DNA of 64,000 nucleotides from the NCBI GenBank assembly GCA_024679065.1, contig JAGIQG010000016.1, forward strand, positions 1,922,001 to 1,986,000. The letters run 5' to 3'. The notes beneath the pieces are model-generated. The model saw only the letters and a list, made by a program, of their open reading frames with translations. It did not search any database and was not told where the DNA came from. Shown here one piece after another: positions 2,678 to 63,458 of the stretch; positions within the stretch are counted from its first letter, which is position 1; each line of letters starts with the position of its first letter. The translations under genes were made by a program, and so were the position numbers. The stretch comes from Sphyrna mokarran (taxonomy: Eukaryota).

Positions 2678-2740
2678 TAACTGAAGTGAGTATTTGGATT
2701 TTGTACTTCGTGGTGCAATACACTACATTGATACAACAAT

Positions 2741-5183
2741 TTTAACTTTGCTAATATTGATTGGAATAGCTATAGCTCTAGCTCGTTAGAGGGGTCAGTT
2801 TTCGTACAGAGTGTGCAGGAAGGTTTTTTGACTCAGTATGTAGATAGGCCAACTAGAGGTGAGGCTACATTGGATTTGGTGCTGGGCAATGAGCCAGACC
2901 AGGTGTTAGGCTTGGAAGTTAGTGAACATTTTGGTGATAGTGACCACAATTCGGTTACGTTCACCTTAGTGATGGACAGGGATAGGCATGAAGCTGGGGG
3001 CAGTAGTTATAGCTGGGGGAAGGGTAATTATGAGGCCATCAGGAGAGAATTAGGGTGCATAGATTGGACTAGGGAACTACAGGGACTGGGAACATCTGGA
3101 ATGTGGTGCTTATTCAAGGAGCAGCTGCTGCGAGTCCTTGATAAGTATGTCCCTGTCAGGCAGGGAGGAAATGGACGAGTAAGAGAGCCTTGGTGTACGA
3201 AAAAAGTTGATTTGCTGGTTAAGAAGAAAAAGGAGGCTTATGTCAGGATGAGGCTTGAAGGCTCAGTTAGTGCAATGGATAGCTATAGATTAGCCAGGAA
3301 GGAGGTAAAAAGTGAATTGAGGAGAGCTAAGAGGGGACACGAGAAGATGTTGGCTGATAGGATTAAGGAGAATCCTAAAGCTTTCTTTCGATATGTTAAG
3401 AATAGAAGATTGGTTAGGGCAAGATTAGGGCCAGTCATAGATAGCAGTGGGAAGTTGTGCGTGGAGCCTGAAGAGATTGGCGAGGCACTGAATAAATATT
3501 TCTCTTCGGTATTCACGCAGAGTGCTGGAAATGTAGCTGTGGAGAGCACTGAGGTACAGGGTTGCAAATTGGGGAGTATTGTAGTAGATAGGGAGGATGT
3601 GTTAGAAATTCTCGAGGGTTTGAAGTTGGATAAGTCCCCTGGGCCGGACGGGATTTACCCTAGGATTCTCTGGGAGGCAAGAGAGGAGATTGCAGAGCCT
3701 CTGGCTCTGATCTTCAGGTCCTCGTTGGTTACGGGTGTGGTTCCGGAGGACTGGAGGATAGCGAATGTGGTCCCATTGTTTAAGAAGGGGAAGAGAGACC
3801 TTCCAGGGAATTATAGGCCAGTGAGTCTTACTTCTGTTGTGGGCAAGGTATTGGAGAGAATTATTAGGGATAGGATTTATAGTTATTTAGAGAGAAATGA
3901 ATTGATTGGGGATAGTCAGCATGGTTTCGTGAAGGGTAGGTCATGCCTTACTAACCTCATTGAGTTTTTTGAGAAAGTGACCAGAGAGGTGGATGGGGGT
4001 AAGGCGGTTGATGTAGTATATATGGACTTTAGTAAGGCTTTTGATAAGGTGGCCCATGGAAGACTTCTACAGAAAATGCAGATGTGTGGAATAGAGGGTG
4101 ATTTAGCTAATTGGATTAGAAATTGGCTGGCAGATAGAAGACAGAGGGTGGTGGTTGATGGGAGATTTTCATCGTGGAGTTCGGTGACGAGTGGTGTGCC
4201 TCAGGGGTCTGTTTTGGGGCCCCTGCTGTTTGTAATTTTTATAAATGATCTGGATGAGGGTATTGAGGGATGGATCAGTAAATTTGCAGATGATACTAAA
4301 GTTGGTGGTGTGGTAGATAGTGAAGAGGGGTGTTTTAGTTTACAGAGTGACTTGGACAAGTTGCAGAGCTGGGCCGAGAGGTGGCAAATGGAGTTTAATG
4401 TGGAAAAGTGTGAGGTAATGCACTTTGGCAGGAACAATAAATGTGTAGAGTATAGGGCTAATGGTAGGGCTCTTAATAGTGTTGAGGAACAGAAGGATCT
4501 TGGTGTATGTGTCAATAGATCCCTGAAAGTAGGCAGTCAAGTGGATAAAGTTGTTAAGAAGGCATATGGAGTCTTAGCTTTTATTGGTAGGGGGATTGAA
4601 TTTAGGAGCCGCAGCATCATGTTGCAGCTGTACAAAACTCTAGTGCGGCCGCACTTGGAGTATTGTGTGCAGTTCTGGTCGCCACATTATAAGAAAGATG
4701 TGGAGGCATTGGAGAGGGTACAGAGGAGGTTTACTAGGATGTTGCCTGGTATGGAGGGCAGGTCCTATGAAGAGAGGTTGAAGGATTTGAGGTTGTTTTC
4801 GTTAGAAAGGAGGCGGCTAAGGGGGGATCTTATTGAAACATATAAGATGATTAGAGGTTTGGATAGGGTGGACAGTGATAGCCTTTTTCCTAGGATGGAG
4901 AAAGCTAGCACGAGGGGACACAACTTTAAATTAAGGGGTATGAGTTATAGGACGGATATCAGAGGTAGGTTCTTTACTCAAAGAGTGATTAGGGAGTGGA
5001 ATGCCCTGCCTGCAGCTGTTGTAGATGCGCCAAGTTTGGTGGCGTTTAAGAGGTTAGTTGATAAGTATATGGATGGGAAGGGAATGGTTTAGTTAGGAGG
5101 GGCATTGCTTTTTATTTTGGTCGGCACAACATCGAAGGCCGAAGGGCCTGTTCTGTGCTGTATTGTTCTATGTTCTATGTTCT
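2741..5183 (+). mobile_element. Young 5'-truncated CR1 (HER1-like) LINE with uninterrupted ORF2 (end of endonuclease + RT)
   Basis: 759-aa open frame with LDLVL, SDHNSV, KSPGPDG, YRPVSLTS, GVPQGSVLGP, FADD; (TTCTATG)n tail; candidate TSD AATTTT at 2738-2743 and 5184-5189. Confidence 0.97.
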
Positions 5184-7068: not shown

Positions 7069-10000
7069 TGAGGTAGCGTGCCTCATTAGGGGGCATGTTC
7101 TTGGAAGGTCATGTGATCCATTCAGCCAATTGGAGTGGAGGGCATGAATCATGGAACTGAGCATGAATGTTCCCTGCAGTCAGGAATCTGGAGTCATGGA
7201 ATACAATTGCTTTTATGTCACCCTTTTAAATAGTCATTTTCCTCTAATAAATTGTTCATCCATTGATCTACTTGGTGGTCACCCATCTTTGAAGGTACTT
7301 CATTTGGCGACAAGGATCAATGGGAGTGCCTTCCTATTGCTGCAGAAATCGGAGAGTAGACCTCGTGTGGTAAACAAGCAGCAAACATGTTCAACAACAT
7401 GTTCAAGTATTAAAATGCCCCTTTTTGGAAAACTTGACCCATTCAACCTAGCACTGAGCAGCGGGTGCAATATGTCAAAAGCATGCATTTTATTTAAGGC
7501 CAATTAAACCTGGAAGGAGGCAAGCAGCAGACAAATATAAATAGCTGATAAGGGATCTAACTTCTCCAGATGCACCCGACACCAAAATCTTTGAGGAGCT
7601 TGTTGAATTGATTAAGGATCATTACTGTCTCAGTGATCATTCAGTGATAAAATTTAATTTGACTGCAAGAACCCCAGGGGAGTGGATAACGGCATTCATG
7701 ACACACCTAAGGCAATTGGCTTAATAAAGTTTGGGTCTTCATTCAATGACATGCTGAGAGACAGATTAGTCTGCAGCATTAATAGTCAACCATTCAGAAT
7801 GGAGGTGGATACTGGTGCCTCCCTACAGTTATAGAACATAGAACATAGAACATTACAGCACAGAACAGGCCCTTCGGCCTTTGATGTTGCGCCGACCAAT
7901 ATAAAAAGCAATGCCCCTCCAAACTAAACCATTCCCTTCTCTTCCATATACTTATCAACTAACCTCTTAAACGCCACCAAACTTGGCGCATCTACAACTG
8001 CTGCAGGCAGGGCATTCCACTCCCGAACCACCCTTTGGGTAAAGAACCTACCTCTGATATCCGTCCTATAACTATCACCCCTTAATTTAAAGCTGTGTCC
8101 CCTCGTGCTAGCTTTCTCCATCCTAGGAAAAAGGCTATCACTGTCCACCCTATCTAAACCTCTAATCATCTTATATGTTTCGATTAGGTCCCCTCTTAGC
8201 CGCCTCCTTTCTAACGAAAACAACCTCAAATCCCTCAGCCTCTCTTCATAAGACCTGCCCTCCATACCAGGCAACATCCTGGTAAACCTCCTCTGTACCC
8301 TCTCCAATGCCTCCACATCTTTCTTATAATGTGGGGACCAGAACTGCACACAATACTCCAAGTGCGGCCGCACTAGAGTTTTGTACAGTTGCAACATGAC
8401 GTTGCGGCTCCGAAATTCAATCCCCCTACCAATAAAAGCTAAGACTCCATATGCCTTCTTAACAACCTTCTCGACATGACTGCCTACTTTCAGGGATCTA
8501 TGCACATACACACCAAGATCCCTCTGTTCATCTAGACTACTAAGAATCCTACCATTTGCCCTATACTCTACACATTTATTATTTCTGCCATAGTGCATTA
8601 CCTCACACTTTTCCACATTAAACTCCATTTGCCACCTCTCGGCCCAGCTCTGCAACTTGTCCAAGTCCCTCTGCAAACTATAACACCCCTCTTCACTATC
8701 TACCACTCCACCGACTTTAGTGTCATCTGCAAATTTACTAATCCATCCTTCAATACCCTCATCCAGATCATTTATAAAAATTACAAACAGCAGGGGCCCC
8801 AAAACAGACCCCTGAGGTACACCACTTGTCACCGAACTCCACGATGAATATCTCCCATCAACCACCACCCTCTGTCTTCTATCTGCTAGCCAATTCCTAA
8901 CCCAATTAGCTAAATCACCCTCTATCCCATACATCTGCATTTTCTGCAGAAGTCTTCCATGGGCCACCTTATCAAACGCCTTACTAAAGTCCATATATAC
9001 CACATCAACCGCCTTACCCCCATCCACCTCCTTAGTCACTTTTTCAAAAAACTCAATGAGGTTAGTAAGGCACGACCTACCCTTCACAAAACCATGCTGA
9101 CTATCTCCAATCAATTCATTACTCTCTAAATAACTATAAATCCTATCCCTAATTATTCTCTCCAACACTTTGCCCACCACAGAAGTAAGACTCACTGGCC
9201 TATAATTCCCTGGAACGTCTCTCTTCCCCTTCTTGAACAAATATAGAGGAACAAATATAGAGGAACAAATGTTTTGTTATTTACAAGGAGGAGTTCAGCC
9301 CCCTACAATTAAGAAGCATGATGGCTATGCTGGTAACATATATTGGGGATGATTTGAGGATCCTAGAAGCAGCAACAATGTCCCTAATTCACTAGCAGAA
9401 GTCAGCTCAACTGCATCTAATAATAAAAGGCCAGAAGCTCGGTTTAATGGGCTGAGCTTGGCTTCACCAAGTTAAATTAAATTGGATAGAAATCTTCAAG
9501 ACCTATAATGAAAACTTCCAGAATGTTTCCAAAAAGGATCAGGAGGTGTTTGAAGGTGAATTAGGCAAGTTTCAGGGTCTAAATGCAAATATGTGGCTGG
9601 GTCCTGAGACCATGGCCAAATTTAACAGAACCTGACCTATACCCATGCCTTACATGATAAAGTTGAGTCTGAACTCGAATCTGGAAGAATTAGACATTAT
9701 TAGGCCAGTACAGTTTTCGGAGTGGCCAACACATATCATGCCAGTAGTTAAGCCAGTCAGAACTATAGGGATTTGCAAGGACTACAAATTGACATTCAAT
9801 TAAGCATCAAAATTAGATAAATATCCAATACCAAGAATTGAAGATTTGCAAGCTAAATTTGCAGGAGGTTTAACTTATACTAAACTTGATATGAGCCATG
9901 TATATCAACAATTTGAATTAGATAAGGCGTCAACAGAACTTGTTACAATCAACACTCACAAAGACTTATACCAATGTACTTGGCTACTCTTCAGGGTATC

Positions 10001-16975: not shown

Positions 16976-17072
16976 ACAGAGACTTCAGTAAATGGACAGT
17001 AGTATTGCTCATGGCTGGAATCATTTTGGGTATTTTCTTGGCTGGAATCTTCAATGTTGTGTATATGAGAAA
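16976..17072 (+). CDS. Gene 1, transmembrane exon
   Basis: ttacag|AC..AA|gtaagt, 97 bp, phase 1-2; DRDFSKWTVVLLMAGIILGIFLAGIFNVVYMRK. Confidence 0.88.
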
Positions 17073-17497: not shown

Positions 17498-17579
17498 AAG
17501 AAAGACAACAACTGAGGAGGGAGCTTCAGAGACCAGTGACATTACGTTGATCTCCATTCCACGTTCTCTGAAGTACCAG
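17498..17579 (+). CDS. Gene 1, first cytoplasmic exon
   Basis: ttacag|AAGAAAG..CCAG|gtacag, 82 bp, phase 2-0; RKTTTEEGASETSDITLISIPRSLKYQ. Confidence 0.78.
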
Positions 17580-44599: not shown

Positions 44600-46760
44600 A
44601 CCCCTGCCATCACCTGCTTTCCATCCTCCTGTTCCTTATATGGCAGGTCCTCTAGTCCTGCTAGTGACAATCCTCCTCCTTCTTCAGTTGGTCTCCCCAT
44701 TGCCGTGCAATGTTTTGTAAGATGCAGCAGACGATAATCAGGAAGGAGACATGCCCAGGGTCATAGAACATAGAACATTACAGCGCAGAACAGGCCCTTC
44801 GGCCTTCGATGTTGCGCCGACCAATATAAAAAGCAATGACCCTCCAAACTAAACCATTCCCTTCTCTTCCATATACTTATCAACTAACCTCTTAAACGCC
44901 ACCAAACTTGGCGCATCTACAACTGCTGCAGGCAGGGCATTCCACTCCCGAACCACCCTTTGGGTAAAGAACCTACCTCTGATATCCGTCCTATAACTAT
45001 CACCCCTTAATTTAAAGCTGTGTCCCCTCGTGCTAGCTTTCTCCATCCTAGGAAAAAGGCTATCACTGTCCACCCTATCTAAACCTCTAATCATCTTATA
45101 TGTTTCGATTAGGTCCCCTCTTAGCCGCCTCCTTTCTAACGAAAACAACCTCAAATCCCTCAGCCTCTCTTCATAAGACCTGCCCTCCATACCAGGCAAC
45201 ATCCTGGTAAACCTCCTCTGTACCCTCTCCAATGCCTCCACATCTTTCTTATAATGTGGGGACCAGAACTGCACACAATACTCCAAGTGCGGCCGCACTA
45301 GAGTTTTGTACAGTTGCAACATGACGTTGCGGCTCCGAAATTCAATCCCCCTACCAATAAAAGCTAAGACTCCATATGCCTTCTTAACAACCTTATCGAC
45401 TTGACTGCCTACTTTCAGGGATCTATGCACATATACACCAAGATCCCTCTGTTCATCAACACTATTAAGAATCCTACCATTAGCCCTATACTCTACACAT
45501 TTATTATTCCTGCCAAAGTGCATTACCTCACACTTTTCCACATTAAACTCCATTTGCCACCTCTCGGCCCAGCTCTGCAACTTGTCCAAGTCTCTCTGCA
45601 AACTATAACACCCCTCTTCACTATCTACCACTCCACCGACTTTAGTGTCATCTGCAAATTTACTAATCCATCCTTCAATACCCTCATCCAGATCATTTAT
45701 AAAAATTACAAACAGCAGGGGCCCCAAAACAGACTCCTGAGGTACACCACTTGTCACCGAACTCCACGATGAATATCTCCCATCAACCACCACCCTCTGT
45801 CTTCTATCTGCTAGCCAATTCCTAATCCAATTAGCTAAATCACCCTCTATCCCATACATCTGCATTTTCTGCAGAAGTCTTCCATGGGCCACCTTATCAA
45901 ACGCCTTACTAAAGTCCATATATACCACATCAACCGCCTTACCCCCATTGTTCCCTTGGAGCAGCATGGAGAGGCAGCAATTTGGGAGAGCGTGAAGTTC
46001 GAGTGTTAAGTCGTTTTTAACTTTTCTCTTTGTTTAAAATAGCGAGCGGGGGTAGTTTTTGCCGTTTTTTTATTTAAACTAACTGGAAACCGGAAGTTGT
46101 CATTAGGAGGCTGCCGGTAGTTGTAGTTTTTCTAGCTATATAAGGGTCATGGTGGAGGACAGCGGAATCTCATCTTCAACGGGCCCGTAGGCATCATCAG
46201 CCATGACCTCAAAGGAAAGCCCTGTCCCCCAGGAGCCATCCTGGCAGCCTAGGCTGGTCTTCAAAGAGCCTAAGGATGTCCATCCTTCTCAGTACATTCC
46301 ATGGATAACATGCACATACCTGCACGATGATCATCTGATGGTCGCAAATGATTAGGACAGAGGAGTGGAACCCCTTTCATTTGATGAATGGTTGCCCCTC
46401 AGCTTGCAAAGATTGCAGGGCAATGTGTGTCCTATCCACTGCCCCCCCTGGATATGGGGCATCCTGGCAATGGCAAGGAAGCTTGCAGCCTGGACCTCCT
46501 GCTGACACTGTCCAACATCAAAGTGTATTTATTGGCCTGCCCAGGTGAACAAGACTCTGTAACCTGGCAAACACATCTCTGCACTGACACTTTTGAGATC
46601 CCACACTGCTGAAGTGATCCTTTGGTGTATAAGGCCCATTGTCAACTTCACCCTTTCAGGACATTGCTATCCTACTTCATGACCAACAATTGCAGCCCCC
46701 TGCCCTCTTTCCTAAAGGACTGCCAATTGGCTGCTCTTGGAGTAGCCTCCTTTTGCTACT
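44600..46760 (-). mobile_element. PIF/Harbinger transposase remnant interrupted by a CR1
   Basis: Minus-strand, frameshifted IA.MPHIQG.AVD.THIAL, KGFHS, ICDH, GWLLGDRA; LHHDPGHVSFLIIVCCILQNIA reads through the CR1 TSD. Confidence 0.8.
44765..46142 (-). mobile_element. Young CR1 insertion: minus-strand RT/3' end (44765-45948) plus inverted 5'-UTR segment (45944-46142)
   Basis: 372-aa ORF; 8-bp TSD AGGGTCAT at 44757-44764 and 46143-46150. Confidence 0.93.
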
Positions 46761-47337
46761 CCTGAGCCGCTGCCTCCTCCTCTCTGCTGTCACCAGGATA
46801 GCCAGCTCTAGATCAATGGGTTTGATATCCATTCTACATGGTGGGGGTTAGAGACTGAGAGAGAGAGATTGATGGATAATGTTATTTTTGCATCTACTCC
46901 AACACCTTTAAACATGAAAGGGAGGAGGCCATTCAGTTGCCTCTGGGCTGCTTTATGGGAACAGAAGGAGATCTTCATTCACAGTGTTGGCACATTGAAG
47001 CATTTTTACTCATTACTGAAATCTAAGTACAAGGCTTAAACAGAACATCTTTCTAGTTCAAGGGGTGAGGCAAGTGTTGACACATGACTTTGAGACATCC
47101 TGAGGTGATGATCGATGTGTTACAAATGCAGTCCTTCATTATTTCTCTTTCTTAAAGTCTTGTGACTCTCTGCAGAGCACCTTTCATACCACACAGAATC
47201 CAATTACTCTGTAAAGACATTGATTAAAAGCAGTTCTGATCTCTCGAGAGCTGTCGGACAAGAGGTGAGGTCTCATTAACTCCTTTCTCTTTCAGAGCTT
47301 AAGAGTAAGAAGCTGGTGAAATATCTGGGAGTGGACA

Positions 47338-47377
47338 ATGATCAGGAAATCTTACTTCCTCCTATCACTTCTCCAAG
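47338..47377 (+). CDS. Siglec-like gene 2, signal-peptide exon
   Basis: ATG ATC AGG..CAA G|gtaata = MIRKSYFLLSLLQ, phase 1, joins V exon as ..LLQVGLSQDW; possible acceptor ttcag at 47291-47295. Confidence 0.8.
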
Positions 47378-48617: not shown

Positions 48618-48980
48618 TTGGATTATCACAGGATTGGAAAGCTGATATTCCACAAGAGGTGACAGCTCTCGAAGGTTCATGTGTACAGATTCCACGTCAT
48701 TACAGTTATCCATCACAGTTGGCAAAACAACCGCGAGTTGGAGTCTGGTTTAATAACAAGAAATGGAATGCATCATCAATAACCTTGCATTCCAAGAATA
48801 ATATTTTTGAGTCAGTACAATTCCGCCATCGGACCCGGCTGTCTGGAAACCTGAATGATGGTGACTGTTCCCTGATTATAAACAAAGTCCGATGGGAAGA
48901 TGGAGGACCTTATTTTTTCAGAGTAGAATTTCACATGGGTCCGAACCATAATTATCCTGTAACCCAGCTTCACGTTTCCA
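48618..48980 (+). CDS. Gene 2, Siglec-type V-set domain exon
   Basis: ccccag|TT..TCCA|gtaagt, 363 bp; W..P.EVTALEGSCVQIP..GVWF..FRHRTRLSGNL.DGDCSLII..EDGGPYFFRVE; essential Arg codon at 48920-48922. Confidence 0.92.
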
Positions 48981-50649: not shown

Positions 50650-50943
50650 ATTTCACAGATAAACCCACGATATTCCCTGCTGAAATTATTGCAGGAAAGC
50701 GTGTGAACATAAGCTGCGCCTTCAATACAACGTGCAATGGAACAGCACCAGTCTTAACCTGGGACACTCCCACTGACATACCTGGATCAGTCTCAAAGAC
50801 TCTAACTCAGCATGGTGTCACTCTGACCTATACTTCTGTTCTGACGCTGATCCCATCACTCAAACACCACAGACATAATCTTACCTTTAGAGTGAGATAT
50901 CCGTTTGTTTCATCAGAGCGGATCTTTACACTGACTGTACAAT
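50650..50943 (+). CDS. Gene 2, C2-set exon (canonical acceptor mutated to GG; probable start 50659 via cryptic AG)
   Basis: Colinear paralog of 1871-2164 including ~100 bp of upstream intron; donor T|gtgagt at 50944. Confidence 0.85.
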
Positions 50944-55722: not shown

Positions 55723-56004
55723 ATGCACCACAAAATCTTTCAATCACTTCTCTTGATATGATTAATGTTTCATGGATCAATATAATTGAGGGGAATTTGA
55801 CAGTGATAATCTGCTCTGTCGAGAGCTTCCCAGCTTCTAATCTGACCTGGAGACATCTTAATGTCACAATAAACAGAACAAGATCCAACAATGAGCTGTG
55901 GTTGGTGATTCCTCACGTTACATCCAGAGACAGTGGAGTCTATCAGTGTGTGGCAGAGAATGAACATGGAGCATTGGAGAGGTCCATAGCCATTACTGTG
56001 GAAA
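55723..56004 (+). CDS. Gene 2, single copy of the 282-bp Ig repeat exon
   Basis: ttttag|ATGCACC..GAAA|gtgagt, phase 1-1; near-identical to gene 1 repeat exons. Confidence 0.92.
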
Positions 56005-57984: not shown

Positions 57985-58081
57985 GTCAAGATTCCAATCA
58001 ATGGATAATAGGATTGCTTGGAGCTGGAATTACTTCGTGCATTGGATCAATTGGATTCATCATCTACAAGTTTGTGAGAAA
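57985..58081 (+). CDS. Gene 2, transmembrane exon
   Basis: ttaaag|GT..AA|gtaagt, 97 bp, same size and phase as gene 1 TM exon; SQDSNQWIIGLLGAGITSCIGSIGFIIYKFVRK. Confidence 0.85.
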
Positions 58082-58606: not shown

Positions 58607-58691
58607 AAGGAGCAGTACAGGAAGAGGACATTCAGCCCAAGTAGAGCAGGTCGGCAGTTACTCTCAAGGCAGGCAATTGGACAGGTCCCAA
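58607..58691 (+). CDS. Gene 2, cytoplasmic exon 1
   Basis: acacag|AAGG..CCAA|gtaatg, 85 bp, phase 2-0; RSSTGRGHSAQVEQVGSYSQGRQLDRSQ. Confidence 0.65.
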
Positions 58692-58809
58692 GTAATGGCA
58701 TGATTGGAGTTATATTCCACAACTGGGAACTTACTCCCCTAGTAATCTAAGCCAACACCAAACACAGATCACGTTGATATTTATCTGTCCATATCTATTT
58801 CTATTACAG

Positions 58810-58911
58810 GAGAGAGGAGATTCGAAATGGGAGGTGAAATCAAACTGCATAATCCTAAAAGATCCTACTTATGAAAATTGTGTGTTTGATAGATACTTGA
58901 GTCATCAGAAG
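58810..58911 (+). CDS. Gene 2, cytoplasmic exon 2
   Basis: ttacag|GAG..AAG|gtgagt, 102 bp, phase 0-0; ERGDSKWEVKSNCIILKDPTYENCVFDRYLSHQK. Confidence 0.8.
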
Positions 58912-59039
58912 GTGAGTGACACACCACAGCCTTTCACGTGGATAGTCACCTGGTTATTGATGTGTCATGTCTTTGCTCTAGTCATGACTCTCTGACGGTT
59001 AGCACACCCAAACCCAACTCCATAAACATCAGACTCAAC

Positions 59040-59272
59040 ATCATTCAGTGTCAATAATCAAACCCTGTTAAGTACCAATAATCAAATCCTGTTCAGTGTC
59101 AATAATCAAATCTTGTTCAGTATCAATAATCAAACCCCGTTCGGTATCAATAATCAAAGCCCATTCAGTGTCAATAATCAAATCCAACATCAGTTTCAAT
59201 AATTAAACATAGTTCAGTATCAATAAACAAATCCATTTAATATCAATAACCAAGCACAACACCATTCAGTGT
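59040..59272. repeat. 24-bp minisatellite (TCAGTRTCAATAATCAAACCCTGT)n; continues at 63170-63245
   Basis: About 9 copies left and 3 right of an LTR element. Confidence 0.9.
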
Positions 59273-62200
59273 TGTTAGCAACCAGATCAGAAACTCCAAA
59301 GTATATTATGAAGTTAGATTAGACCCCACTCACTTTTTGATTTTAATATTACAGTGAGCAGAAGATGTTTCATTCCAGATGAGATTCTATCACCCACTCA
59401 GAAGTTTTTATTAAAACAAACTTTATTTAACAATACAGTTTAATTATAACAAAAAGAATTAGCCTAACATTTCTGCGTCAAACAACTCAACTTAAACATG
59501 AGAAGATATTATTCTTAACTGCTATTAGTTCCAATTTAAGCTGTACTTCTCATAGATATAAATTCTTCAGAATGAGTGAGCAAAAACAGAGTCTTATGTG
59601 ACCCGCTAGTCCTCCAACCTTTTATAACATCTGGACACGGAGAGACTCACCTGTCTTCTGACTCACAGACAGTAGCCTCCAGAGAAAGACCTGTCTTCAC
59701 AAGCAGCAAAATTCCAGAAAAAGAGATGGAGAAAACACTTCTTGCCTTTTGCAGACCTCTGGAGAAGAATATGTATTTTCTAGCAGGTCCCAGGCTTCAA
59801 TTTCCAGAAAGAGAGGGAAAGAGAAAAATATCCAAATCCAAAGAGCAACTGCCTGTGTGTCTTTCTCTGTAAGGCTAGCTCTGCCCATTCATGAGTTTCT
59901 CTTGTCTGAGAGACCCTTCTCTGAAACCCCAGGAAACAATCCAAAGGGTAACAAAACTGCATTAACTCAGATTAAAACAAACACCCCAATAATTAGGAGC
60001 AATTATTCATCTATATTCTTAATATGTGGACTGCTACAATTGGCACTGTAATCAGAGCTGAAGTATTAAACAGTCCCCTCACAAGAAATATGGTGCAAAT
60101 ACCTTTCCTAAAAGTACAGTAGTAACACCACATATCTTAAAAAAATCAACTATCAATATACAAAAATGGCTTCATTTTTTTTAAAAACCTCTACTTTCAT
60201 ATTATTAATACTCTACAACATATAAGCATGCAAATATAACAGTAGCAGAGTCAAATTCAGTCCTTTACTCCCACATCAAACATTCCTTCTTTTTTATCAA
60301 AGTTGCAATAAAGCATAGGCAATCACGTTCGCTCTTTCCACTTGCTCAACATCCTTTTTCAGTCCTTGATCCTGCTTTGATTCGAAGTCTGAGTTCAATT
60401 TTGTTGTCGCAACTGTAAATTAGTTTTAGTAATGTCCTTAAAGAACCAGGGACGATCAGGAGGATAAAACTTTACATTGGATGCAAACTTGCACAAACTA
60501 CTTTGGATTTGCTTTTTAATTTCCTTGACTCAGTCGAAACAGTTCTTTTGATTTTCAGAGATTCCTCTATCAGGCAGGCCAACTCCACATTCTGTTGTGA
60601 ACTGGTGTTTCAACAGTCTTTCCCACATCTCCAATCTTTCTGTTCAAAGCTACTTTACCAATTTCTTAATTGTTCTAGATCTTCATTATCATTTTCTACA
60701 TATTCTTTGGCTATAAATATATAGCAGATTGTTTTCTTTGGTGACAAAATTCATCATTCCAACAACTAGCATGGCAATTCTGTTGCTGCAAAAACCATCA
60801 TAATTTACTCATACACCAGTTATGGACAGTACTGCTTCTCTTAGTAACCACAATCTGTACAAGCTGTATAGATTCATTATTCCAGCAGTTCATTTCAAAT
60901 GATGGTATTGTTTCACCAAACTGTCTCACCTCATGCCGTTGTCCTTTACTTTCGCCTGCAGTAGTAAAATACTTCTGTTCCTCAATCTCCATTTTGCAAT
61001 CACCCATAACTGTTAATTCATCGACATTTTTCTTTTCATAGATGATGCATTGTTTTTAATAGTTGACATTCAGTTAATTCCAACAACTCAGGAACAGCTT
61101 TCAAAATAGTCAACTTTTCTTGCATTTGTCTCCGCACCTGCTCACTTTCCTGAATCAATCATTGTTCACAAACTAGTATTCCTTTTTTGCCTTCACCAGT
61201 TTTACATTGCACTCACCTGCCTTCATTCAAGTCTTCATTAACTGAGATTTGTAACTATTCACCAGCCCTTCATAGTGCTTGATTGAGACTTTCAACTGCT
61301 GCATCTCAGGCCAAGCAAATGTCAGCTTTTCCTTCCAAACCCCCCGGGACAGCTTCAGTAGATTAAATCTAGACAAATGTTGCTCAATTGGAACAGCATT
61401 TTCTACATCACGCACACTTATTTTAGTTTTTCCCAATACATTCCCACATATATCTCCATGTGAATGTAATAACTTTTTCAGCTCATTTTGATTTTCTTCT
61501 CAAAAGTAACTCAGTATGTAAATCCCAATATTTGATTACTTCCTGATTGTCCAATTCGATTTGAGAAATGTCAATTTCAGAATCATCTAGTTCTTTTTTC
61601 GCTCTGCATTGTGATCACCAACACAGCCTTCTTCTGCTTTTCATCCCTTTCAAAATACTGGTTGAGCATTTGTAAAGAGAGAAAAGTACAACATTTTGAG
61701 TCCACATGACAGACAAAAGGTCTCCTGGACTCAAAATATCAGGTCTTTCTCTCCTTACAAATGCTGCCAGACCTGCTGAGATTTTCCAGAATTTTCACTT
61801 TCGGTTTCAGATTCCAGCATCTGCAGTAATTTGCTGTATACTGTTCCAGTATATTCATATGACACACTCTGGGGATGGTCTTACCATCGCGTTGTATCAG
61901 TTTTTGGGCATGATGCAATGGTAAAGTTGGGCGTAAAGCACTTAGCATGGTTGGTGCCATTTTTTTTGCGAGTACCAGATTTCTGGCATGGTCAGCCTCT
62001 TGCTGGAAATGGGCAGGAGGCAGGTTAATATATACAGATTTATAATAATGTTATTTTACATCTGCTTAGTGAGTCTAGCATTCAATTGTCCAGGCCCCCC
62101 ACCTACTTTGTGATCTCGCCAGGAAAGTTCACATTGGAGAGGAATAGACATGCTCTCCATGAATGGAGAGCAATCAGACTTGGCCTCACTGGTTGAACCT

Positions 62201-63170
62201 GAGGCAATTGAGGCCCCGCCAGGGAAGTCAAGGGCAAGGCCAAATTGGCAGTGTCACCCTGGCACCTGAGCAATGCTCACTGGGCAGGGCTAATGGGGGC
62301 AGCAGCCAACTGCCACTTTGCAGGAATTGGTGGGGGGAAGAGAGGGGTCTGTTGCCACTCTGCAGCAATTGGTGGGCAGAGACCAACAGATCCACAATTG
62401 TCAGGGTTGGGGACCAGCAGGGGCTTTATTTTGGGCCACCGCAATTATAGGGGGGGTACTGTTTCAAGCAGTCTGCAGTAGCAGGGGCCTGACAGCTCTC
62501 TGTTTTTCAGACCCATTACTGACATTGCGTACATGCAGCATCACAAGCATGCACATGAGCAGTCTTTCCTTCTACAAGCCCCACTCACAGGCTTCTGCAA
62601 CGAGCAACAGGTTTGCTGGTATTTTTACAAGCGGAGTATTGGGTGGGGGGGTAGGGGTGGGAGGGGGACCTGAGAACATGCCCAAAAGACAGATCTAAAA
62701 CTCTCTCAGTTTCAAGTCTATTCAGCATTGAGAAAAAAATGGTAAAATTGTCCCATCTGAGTTTTACTTAGTCCTAAATAACCTCCTACTGATACACATT
62801 TTCCAGCAGGTCTCAGACTTCAATTTCCAAAAAGAGAGAGGAAAAGAGTTGCTGTTCCATTTAAATTCAAACATTAATTGCCTGCTCTCTGAAACCCTAT
62901 CTCCGACCACTCATATGCCTATCTCCTCTTGTCAAGTAGGCTAATCAAACCCCCACTATGAAACTTCAAAGAACAACTCCAAAAAACAAAACTGCATTAA
63001 CCCAAATTAAAACAAATACTCCAAAAACTCGGAGCAATTATTCTTCTACGTACTCAGCACGTGGGCTGTAAGTCATAAACAGTCAACACTGTAATCAGAG
63101 CTGAAAAATAAAATAGTCCCCTCACAAGAAACATGATACAAATACATTTCTCAAAGATACAGTATTAATA
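59273..63170 (-). mobile_element. Degenerate LTR retroelement: LTR 59273-60127, decayed internal region, partial LTR ~62790-63170
   Basis: Direct repeat 59780-60127 vs 62800-63170; same LTR family as the solo LTRs; splits the 24-bp minisatellite. Confidence 0.75.
61650..61840. mobile_element. Penelope-derived inverted-repeat fragment (related pieces at 50295-50400 and 51045-51130)
   Basis: ATTTTGAGTCCA..TGGACTCAAAAT hairpin then GCTGCCAGACCTGCTGAG.TTTTCCAG; reverse complement present at 50330-50375. Confidence 0.6.
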
Positions 63171-63341
63171 ATTAAACCCCGTTCAGTATCAATAATCAAA
63201 CTCCATATAGTATCAATAAACAAACCCTGTTCAGTATCAATAATTGATGACTGGTGTGGGTGGAATTTTCAATTTGGATCAATTATACTAAACATATATC
63301 ACTTCTGATTATCTCTCTGATCCTTTCTGTTTCTATTACAG

Positions 63342-63458
63342 AAGAAAGAAGGGAAGGTTCTGGAAATGGAATCTTATCACAGCCTCAGTCCTGATCCAGA
63401 AGATGATCTTTATGCAAACTGTGACTTTTCTCAGGATGCTATTTATGGGAATTTATAA
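63342..63458 (+). CDS. Gene 2, last coding exon with tyrosine motifs
   Basis: ttacag|AAG..TAA; KKEGKVLEMESYHSLSPDPEDDLYANCDFSQDAIYGNL*; total CDS 1380 nt (1371 with cryptic acceptor), in frame. Confidence 0.82.
   Translation, partial: KKEGKVLEMESYHSLSPDPEDDLYANCDFSQDAIYGNL

Follow-up and report, generated by a model that had tools for sequence, protein, structure and literature searches.

Gene 2 of a 64,000-nucleotide (nt) window of the Sphyrna mokarran genome (GenBank assembly GCA_024679065.1, contig JAGIQG010000016.1, positions 1,922,001 to 1,986,000 of the forward strand) joins a Siglec-derived ectodomain to a cytoplasmic tail with three YxN motifs on homologous exons. The structure of the gene, its motifs, the homology of its tail exons and the presence of the same tail class in other sharks and in rays can be read directly. 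As a class, such tails would likely dock adaptors of the Grb2 family rather than SHP-1, and the gene 2 copy itself is likely decaying, a combined picture to which we give an even chance. All coordinates of gene 2 are window positions on the + strand.

Siglec signalling is usually sorted into inhibition through an immunoreceptor tyrosine-based inhibition motif (ITIM) and SHP, or activation through coupling to DAP12, with Grb2 sites regarded as extras. If the reading given here is true, a third Siglec output would be represented by a multi-YxN tail that is free of ITIMs and conserved in the oldest lineage of jawed vertebrates. Such a tail would moreover provide a natural series of two, three or more sites in which the valency of Grb2 docking could be related to the sign and strength of the signal.

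Three YxN motifs on homologous tail exons

The distal part of the tail is encoded by an internal exon of 102 nt (58810..58911, phase 0-0) and by the last exon (63342..63458), which ends with a TAA stop codon. The internal exon contains YENC (58870-58881), and the last exon contains YHSL (63375), YANC (63411) and, after 7 residues, YGNL (63444). Thus, three YxN motifs, two of them with a Cys directly following, and the additional YHSL are found at the spacings described by an earlier sequence-only reading of this stretch. The other tail tyrosines are YSQG in the linker exon (58607..58691) and YLSH in the 102-nt exon, six in all. None of the six shows a strict ITIM, in agreement with that reading, and the CD33-related layout of an ITIM together with an ITIM-like motif or immunoreceptor tyrosine-based switch motif (ITSM) is likewise absent. 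Shuffling of the tail residues produced three YxN motifs in 0.043% of 100,000 shuffles, a frequency that ignores the shared ancestry of two of the motifs. YHSL is private to gene 2, being present in only one of the six last exons of the genome.

Both tail exons are preceded by the same acceptor 12-mer, tttctattacag, which occurs exactly twice in the 64 kb of the window (58798-58809 and 63330-63341). The exons align with 66 of 99 nt identical (p=0.001, 1000 codon shuffles), and their protein local score is also elevated (p=0.013). Over the whole genome, 41 of 42 pairs of internal and last exons reached p<0.05, these pairs being non-independent. This homology beyond chance supports the earlier proposal that the tail was built by exon duplication. 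As coding-only profiles of either exon type match the other at E 0.19 or worse only, the duplication is old. Copy number of the internal exon differs between genes: none was found in paralogues L034 and L040, one is present in gene 2, L036 and L038, and four are present in a paralogue on another contig, C2; duplication is therefore still ongoing. The internal exon has a strong donor (AAG/gtgagt), and skipping it preserves the frame, so that its description as a skippable phase 0-0 exon held.

The paralogue on C2 (L044:4597-9045 and L046:4220-4327; G000:C2 75.49-75.50 Mb) carries its four internal exons in tandem, three of them near-identical and with YENC. Its last exon was not found within about 15 kb of the fourth internal exon. 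The possibility that the signal-peptide exon gave rise to the tail exons was considered and is unsupported (mean z -0.4 to 1.5; no profile match). A comparison for descent of the last exon from the class I terminal exon of gene 1 yielded p=0.086.

A linker exon needed between membrane and tail

The sequence-only reading presupposes that the tail exons are joined to the transmembrane (TM) exon (57985..58081, phase 1-2). A direct join would not serve: the TM exon ends in phase 2, and joining it to 58810 shifts the frame and leads to a stop after 8 codons. Direct joins of the TM exon to the 102-nt exon or to the last exon were rejected as carriers of the motifs on account of the frameshift. Keeping the tail in frame therefore takes a linker exon of phase 2-0 that begins at 58607 and was unlisted earlier. 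In the five paralogues where a TM exon precedes it, this linker is 85 nt long and has a gtaagt or gtgagt donor. It is also joined to the TM segment in 13 of the 83 database proteins that match the V exon of gene 2, of which the 82 with an organism name are all from elasmobranchs. In the case of paralogue L042, a TM exon or linker was not found within the 30 kb examined.

In gene 2, a 4-nt deletion has taken away the ancestral donor of the linker. In-frame GT dinucleotides are left after 58691 (CAA/gtaatg), 58649 (CAG/gtcggc) and 58640, and an out-of-frame one after 58684. The donor after 58691 is without both the G at -1 and the G at +5, a combination present in 0 of 40 other family donors (41 pattern matches less a spurious one). 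The donor after 58649 keeps both, and the Mustelus model P0012 joins at the equivalent 43-nt position. The resulting protein has 456 amino acids (aa) with an 85-nt linker and 442 aa with a 43-nt linker. The alignment with the paralogues would favour 85 nt; 43 nt is also possible.

Copies of the linker exon were additionally detected 441-639 bp 5' of the signal-peptide exon in five paralogues (L029:4831-5410, L031, L033, L043 and L049), mostly with a gtaagt donor and some without an acceptor AG. As these upstream copies look like a 5' untranslated first exon, the tail linker may have been recruited from the 5' untranslated exon of the family, or the reverse.

A tail class shared by elasmobranchs

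Tail comparisons outside S. mokarran rest on database gene models. The complete arrangement of linker, YENC and YxNC-x7-YxN was found in models of Mustelus (XP_078092346.1), Cetorhinus (XP_078390091.1) and Stegostoma (XP_048379657.2), thus answering the suggestion that YxNC conservation be checked in other elasmobranchs. Heptranchias shows the linker together with a single last exon, which bears the last two tyrosines, and Mobula shares the terminal tyrosine pair, not the linker. By these models, the tail of gene 2 is a member of a conserved elasmobranch tail class that is present in several orders of sharks, and not unique to this gene. The terminal tyrosine pair that defines the class, here called class II, is present in 11 of the 83 proteins, from 6 species. 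A juxtamembrane Cys was found in 13 of 13 database members of this class. A tail profile run against 1.84 billion representative sequences matched only four, all from sharks, a result that is weak as to absence elsewhere for such a short and fast-evolving query. The last-exon profile matched P0038 alone among longer proteins.

To describe the kept residues, 18 distinct terminal pairs were counted, 12 from databases and 6 from the genome itself, after four duplicates had been dropped. The last tyrosine is followed by Asn at +2 in 18 of 18 pairs, and this is the sole invariant residue after it; the +3 position holds I (5), V (5), M (3), L (2), K (1), T (1) or Q (1). In the case of the preceding tyrosine, Asn at +2 is found in 14/18 and Cys at +3 in 11/18. 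The spacer between the two Yxxx motifs is 7 residues in 15/18, gene 2 included. The Stegostoma protein named above, P0089 (XP_048379657.2), was compared later and by eye, and matches this pattern. P0089 carries the same tail on a quite different V domain, apparently without the essential Arg, which suggests that the tail module may have moved between genes.

Two further tail classes are present in the family. Class I shows a strict ITIM followed by an ITSM (20 of the 83 proteins, 9 species; for example P0006, P0015 and P0030). Class III has a short tail and an Arg in the TM helix (7 of 83: P0002, P0023, P0024, P0027, P0036, P0044 and P0057), and its members may be the activating counterparts of ITIM members whose V domains are nearly identical to theirs. 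A tree was built from 58 V domains, with six very long models and the unclassified ones excluded, and has many open forks. Its starred clades mix tail classes, class I with class III and class II with class I; the V domains are thus not sorted by tail, as paired receptors would show. Several class I members, gene 1 included, have lost the +3 residue of the ITIM and kept the Asn. The gene 1 tail (window 16976-17072, 17498-17579 and 18392 onward) is of the inhibitory class, with Pro at +3 of the ITIM (LLYGNP) and the ITSM gone; a Pro at this position with the Asn kept also occurs in models from Carcharodon and Scyliorhinus.

Signalling expected from the tail

Phosphorylated YxN (pYxN) is the motif bound by the SH2 domain of Grb2, and replacing N by D abolishes Grb2 binding in CD22 (PMC5302901, in the portion available). 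As every terminal pair has Asn at +2 of its last tyrosine, and a strict ITIM is found in 5/18 of them (3/18 if Ile at +3 is disallowed) and a strict immunoreceptor tyrosine-based activation motif (ITAM), with L/I at +3 of both tyrosines, in 0/18, docking of Grb2-family proteins appears to be the best reading of the tail class that sequence can provide. The gene 2 tail would most likely work like a tail with multiple immunoglobulin tail tyrosine (ITT) motifs. Three observations weigh against this reading. The motif at the ITIM position of class I is itself YxN in 16 of 21 distinct cases, so Asn at +2 alone cannot separate Grb2 wiring from SHP wiring. Moreover, the terminal motif of class II is near to an ITIM, being hydrophobic at +3 in 15/18 and having S or A at -2 in 16/18. 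Lastly, the tyrosine of the internal exon is labile and has been lost in L036, L038, one of the C2 copies, and models from Chiloscyllium and Hemiscyllium. The earlier claim of Grb2-type rather than SHP wiring keeps its standing as the preferred interpretation.

A mechanism can be sketched for intact members of the class. Binding of sialoglycans would cluster the receptor, a Src-family kinase would phosphorylate the tail tyrosines in their acidic context, and the SH2 domain of Grb2, GADS or Grap would read pY-x-N at two or three sites, the number of which would be set by one to several copies of the internal exon. Grb2 docking is described as activating in DNAM-1 and as inhibitory, via SHIP1, in TIGIT (PMC8390200, in part), so that docking by itself does not decide between activation and inhibition. 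We lean slightly towards a co-activating, DNAM-1-like output over SHIP1-linked inhibition; such a tail would form a third arm beside the ITIM+ITSM and the TM-arginine Siglecs of the family. As to how the tail arose, duplication would have acted on an ancestral last exon bearing two tyrosines, probably earlier than the divergence of the sampled galeomorph orders, and a donor would then have been gained by the upstream duplicate. A broader and rather doubtful proposal is that elasmobranchs possess a three-armed Siglec paired-receptor system, with a hitherto undescribed, ITIM-free, Grb2-family-only third arm, a valency tuned by duplication and skipping of a phase-0 exon (0-4 copies), a mobile tail module, and a first tail exon that perhaps derives from the 5' untranslated exon of the family.

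Other readings of the same tyrosines have to be weighed. The terminal motif could be an ITIM of relaxed consensus for the recruitment of SHP-1/SHP-2 or SHIP; the class would then consist of conventional inhibitory Siglecs that, as in CD22 or Siglec-G, have Grb2 sites in addition. The five pairs with the strict S-x-Y-x-x-[VI] form include those of Heptranchias and of the two Mobula species, and this form could thus be ancestral; gene 2 deviates from it by an Ala at -2, and CD22 combines ITIMs with an inhibitory Grb2 site in the published material available. Nevertheless, 13 of 18 pairs fail the consensus, three of them with K, Q or T at +3. The first tyrosine is never an ITIM, with an acidic residue or Asn at -2 and C, F, W, Y or R at +3, and within the family, ITIM+ITSM tails already have a class of their own, class I. 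We consider this reading rather unlikely. An ITAM-like pair for the tandem SH2 domains of Syk/ZAP70, as in ITAM-like CEACAM tails, would fit the 7-residue spacing of most pairs, which is that of an ITAM (two tyrosine motifs 6-8 residues apart in the available part of PMC5112662), the Asp at -3 in 9/18, and the YxN reported in the same source for Xenopus Ceacam ITAM-like tails. It is very unlikely given that no pair has L/I at +3 of both tyrosines, that Cys is usual there at the first one, and that the Mobula spacers are of 5 and 6 residues.

A third possibility is that the tail is mainly endocytic, with unphosphorylated Yxx-hydrophobic motifs binding AP-2 for the uptake of sialylated cargo. 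The mostly hydrophobic +3 of the last tyrosine and YHSL in gene 2 agree with the consensus YxxL/M/V/I/F (given in PMC5112662, as far as available). This reading leaves the invariant Asn unexplained, YHSL is not shared by other members, and the three with K, Q or T at +3 do not conform; we regard it as highly improbable. Docking of Grb2-family adaptors accordingly stays our preferred interpretation of the class.

State of the gene 2 copy

Upstream of the TM exon, gene 2 comprises a signal-peptide exon (47296..47377; ATG at 47338, phase 1 at its end), a V-set exon of Siglec type (48618..48980), a first C2-set exon (50659..50943) and a second Ig exon of C2/I type (55723..56004) with its cysteines intact; the TM, linker, internal and last exons follow in this order. 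In Pfam, the V domain hits V-set (7e-9) and Ig_CD22 (3e-7), and 18 of its 20 matches in the PDB are Siglecs, with MAG as the best (1e-12) and sialoadhesin among the best. The essential F-strand Arg is kept (codon 48920) and aligns to the Arg of MAG and sialoadhesin. The TM helix is without a charged residue and so lacks the feature of an activating (DAP12/FcR-gamma) Siglec. The sequence also retains the first Cys of the V domain and the extra Cys of the C2 domain, which we take to be the V-to-C2 interdomain disulfide pair of Siglecs.

Two canonical disulfides are broken. The B-strand Cys of the V domain, needed for the intra-sheet bond with the E-strand Cys, is Arg (codon 48695, CGT), and the F-strand Cys of the C2 domain is Phe (codon 50886, TTT). 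At this C2 position, Cys is found in 58 of 58 database domains matched by pattern and in 6 of 6 paralogues. Because these two cysteines are gone, gene 2 is classified here as Siglec-derived and not as a working Siglec. No V domain from the databases (0 of 110) and a single C2 domain (1 of 76) lacks a conserved Cys. The juxtamembrane Cys of the tail class is Phe as well (codon 58071). The Mustelus orthologue P0029 (79% V identity; tree support 99/97) keeps both disulfide Cys, the juxtamembrane Cys and the full linker in a model without a last exon. The label of sialic-acid receptor, given to gene 2 by the sequence-only reading, is doubtful for this copy because the two disulfide Cys and the linker donor have been lost.

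Gene 2 might accordingly yield no working receptor at all, with an ectodomain that misfolds, a linker that is skipped or mis-spliced, and motifs that are relics; the product would be truncated, tyrosine-free and probably sensitive to nonsense-mediated decay. We place this slightly short of even chances, and it is a question separate from the mechanism of the class. In addition to the lost cysteines and the deleted donor, each of the four candidate donors scores under at least 40 of the 41 family donors in a family matrix, and linker skipping, use of a 78-nt donor and intron retention all lead to early stops. The cluster contains further damaged copies, for example L040 with a stop and L054 with Cys loss.

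Several points speak for an intact gene and against decay. The frame is open across 456 codons, the essential Arg persists, and the in-frame donors that remain include the 43-nt position used by Mustelus P0012. By chance, a GT still falls at the ancestral length of the exon after the 4-nt deletion, the donor matrix is small and narrow, and assembly error is a possible source of the lesions. Furthermore, the juxtamembrane Cys is also missing in 2 of 5 paralogues of the genome, and the database proteins are annotation-filtered, which inflates their Cys conservation. The private nonsynonymous to synonymous changes of gene 2 (15:6, neutral expectation 2.95) do not discriminate, given ratios of 11:2 and 7:1 in paralogues. 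Short proteins (52-228 aa) spanning the tail junctions were searched for among 1807 candidates and none was found, which is weak evidence. Overall, we hold decay of this copy at about even odds. Gene 2 is in any case a poor representative of its class, for which L034, L036 and the Cetorhinus and Stegostoma models look intact.

Relation to known receptors

That Siglecs can have Grb2 sites is already known; new is the ITIM-free multi-YxN Siglec tail class of elasmobranchs. LAT-type adaptors contain several YxN motifs in acidic context and a juxtamembrane palmitoylation Cys, with almost no ectodomain, whereas the gene 2 ectodomain comprises three Ig domains and the juxtamembrane Cys is gone. The closest counterparts are CD22 and Siglec-G/Siglec-10, in which, as in the gene 2 class, the tail of a protein with a Siglec ectodomain contains a pYxN site for Grb2. 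In the available portions of the sources, the YEN motif of CD22 binds Grb2 and accounts for ~70% of CD22 inhibition of Ca2+ (PMC5302901), its Grb2 site is described elsewhere too (PMC13299070, PMC8710542), and Siglec-G has such a site as well (PMC8165807). Unlike the shark class, whose tails have two or three YxN and mostly lack a strict ITIM, these Siglecs are there described as also having ITIMs and recruiting SHP-1. The earlier wording that the tail is atypical for Siglecs was thus overstated, because Grb2 sites occur in CD22 and Siglec-G, and the class I ITIM is mostly a YxN; a tail with YxN only is indeed unusual. Taken together, the observations of the sequence-only reading were confirmed in part and its interpretation is supported in part.

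CD33-related and paired Siglecs (Siglec-5/-14) likewise form a tandem cluster with a V and few C2 domains, birth and death of genes, and similar ectodomains on opposing tails (PMC8710542, in part). Shark classes I and III resemble their inhibitory and activating arms. The published descriptions compared, available in part, contain no YxN-only tail class for them. DNAM-1 (CD226) and TIGIT are also Ig receptors that signal by pYxN and Grb2 (PMC8390200); they differ, in the text available, by having one ITT-like motif each, nectin ligands, and opposite signs from the same adaptor. Xenopus Ceacams form a comparable paired-receptor cluster with ITAM-like tails in which small exons encode conserved YxN motifs for Grb2 (PMC5112662). 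By the same partial account, they carry a CEACAM ectodomain and their YxxL is split by phase-0 introns, whereas both tyrosines of the shark class lie in one exon. The expanded shark family with ITIM+ITSM tails contrasts with a teleost-based statement that fish genomes are without inhibitory CD33-like Siglecs (PMC7226832, whose available portion does not mention sharks). No paper on shark Siglec tails was found in the literature searched, a coverage mostly outside subscription journals.

Cluster and intron features

The window lies within a cluster on the contig handled here as C668, and V-exon matches number 17 genome-wide. Identical matches on G000:C865 and C668:2.83-2.85 Mb (L014/L015, L074-L077) point to either a duplicated haplotig or a duplication that happened very recently. 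The last intron has 4430 nt in gene 2 and 580 nt in paralogue L036. In gene 2 it contains a 24-bp minisatellite (59044..59253, with a second block at 63160-63244; strand not assigned) that is interrupted by ~3.9 kb of other sequence, and in L042 the same minisatellite, lying upstream of the last exon, has expanded to at least ~8 kb. Long open reading frames resembling reverse transcriptase, of the long interspersed nuclear element type as judged by eye, lie in or beside the Siglec genes (window 2732-5092, 7924-9276 and 44849-46033).

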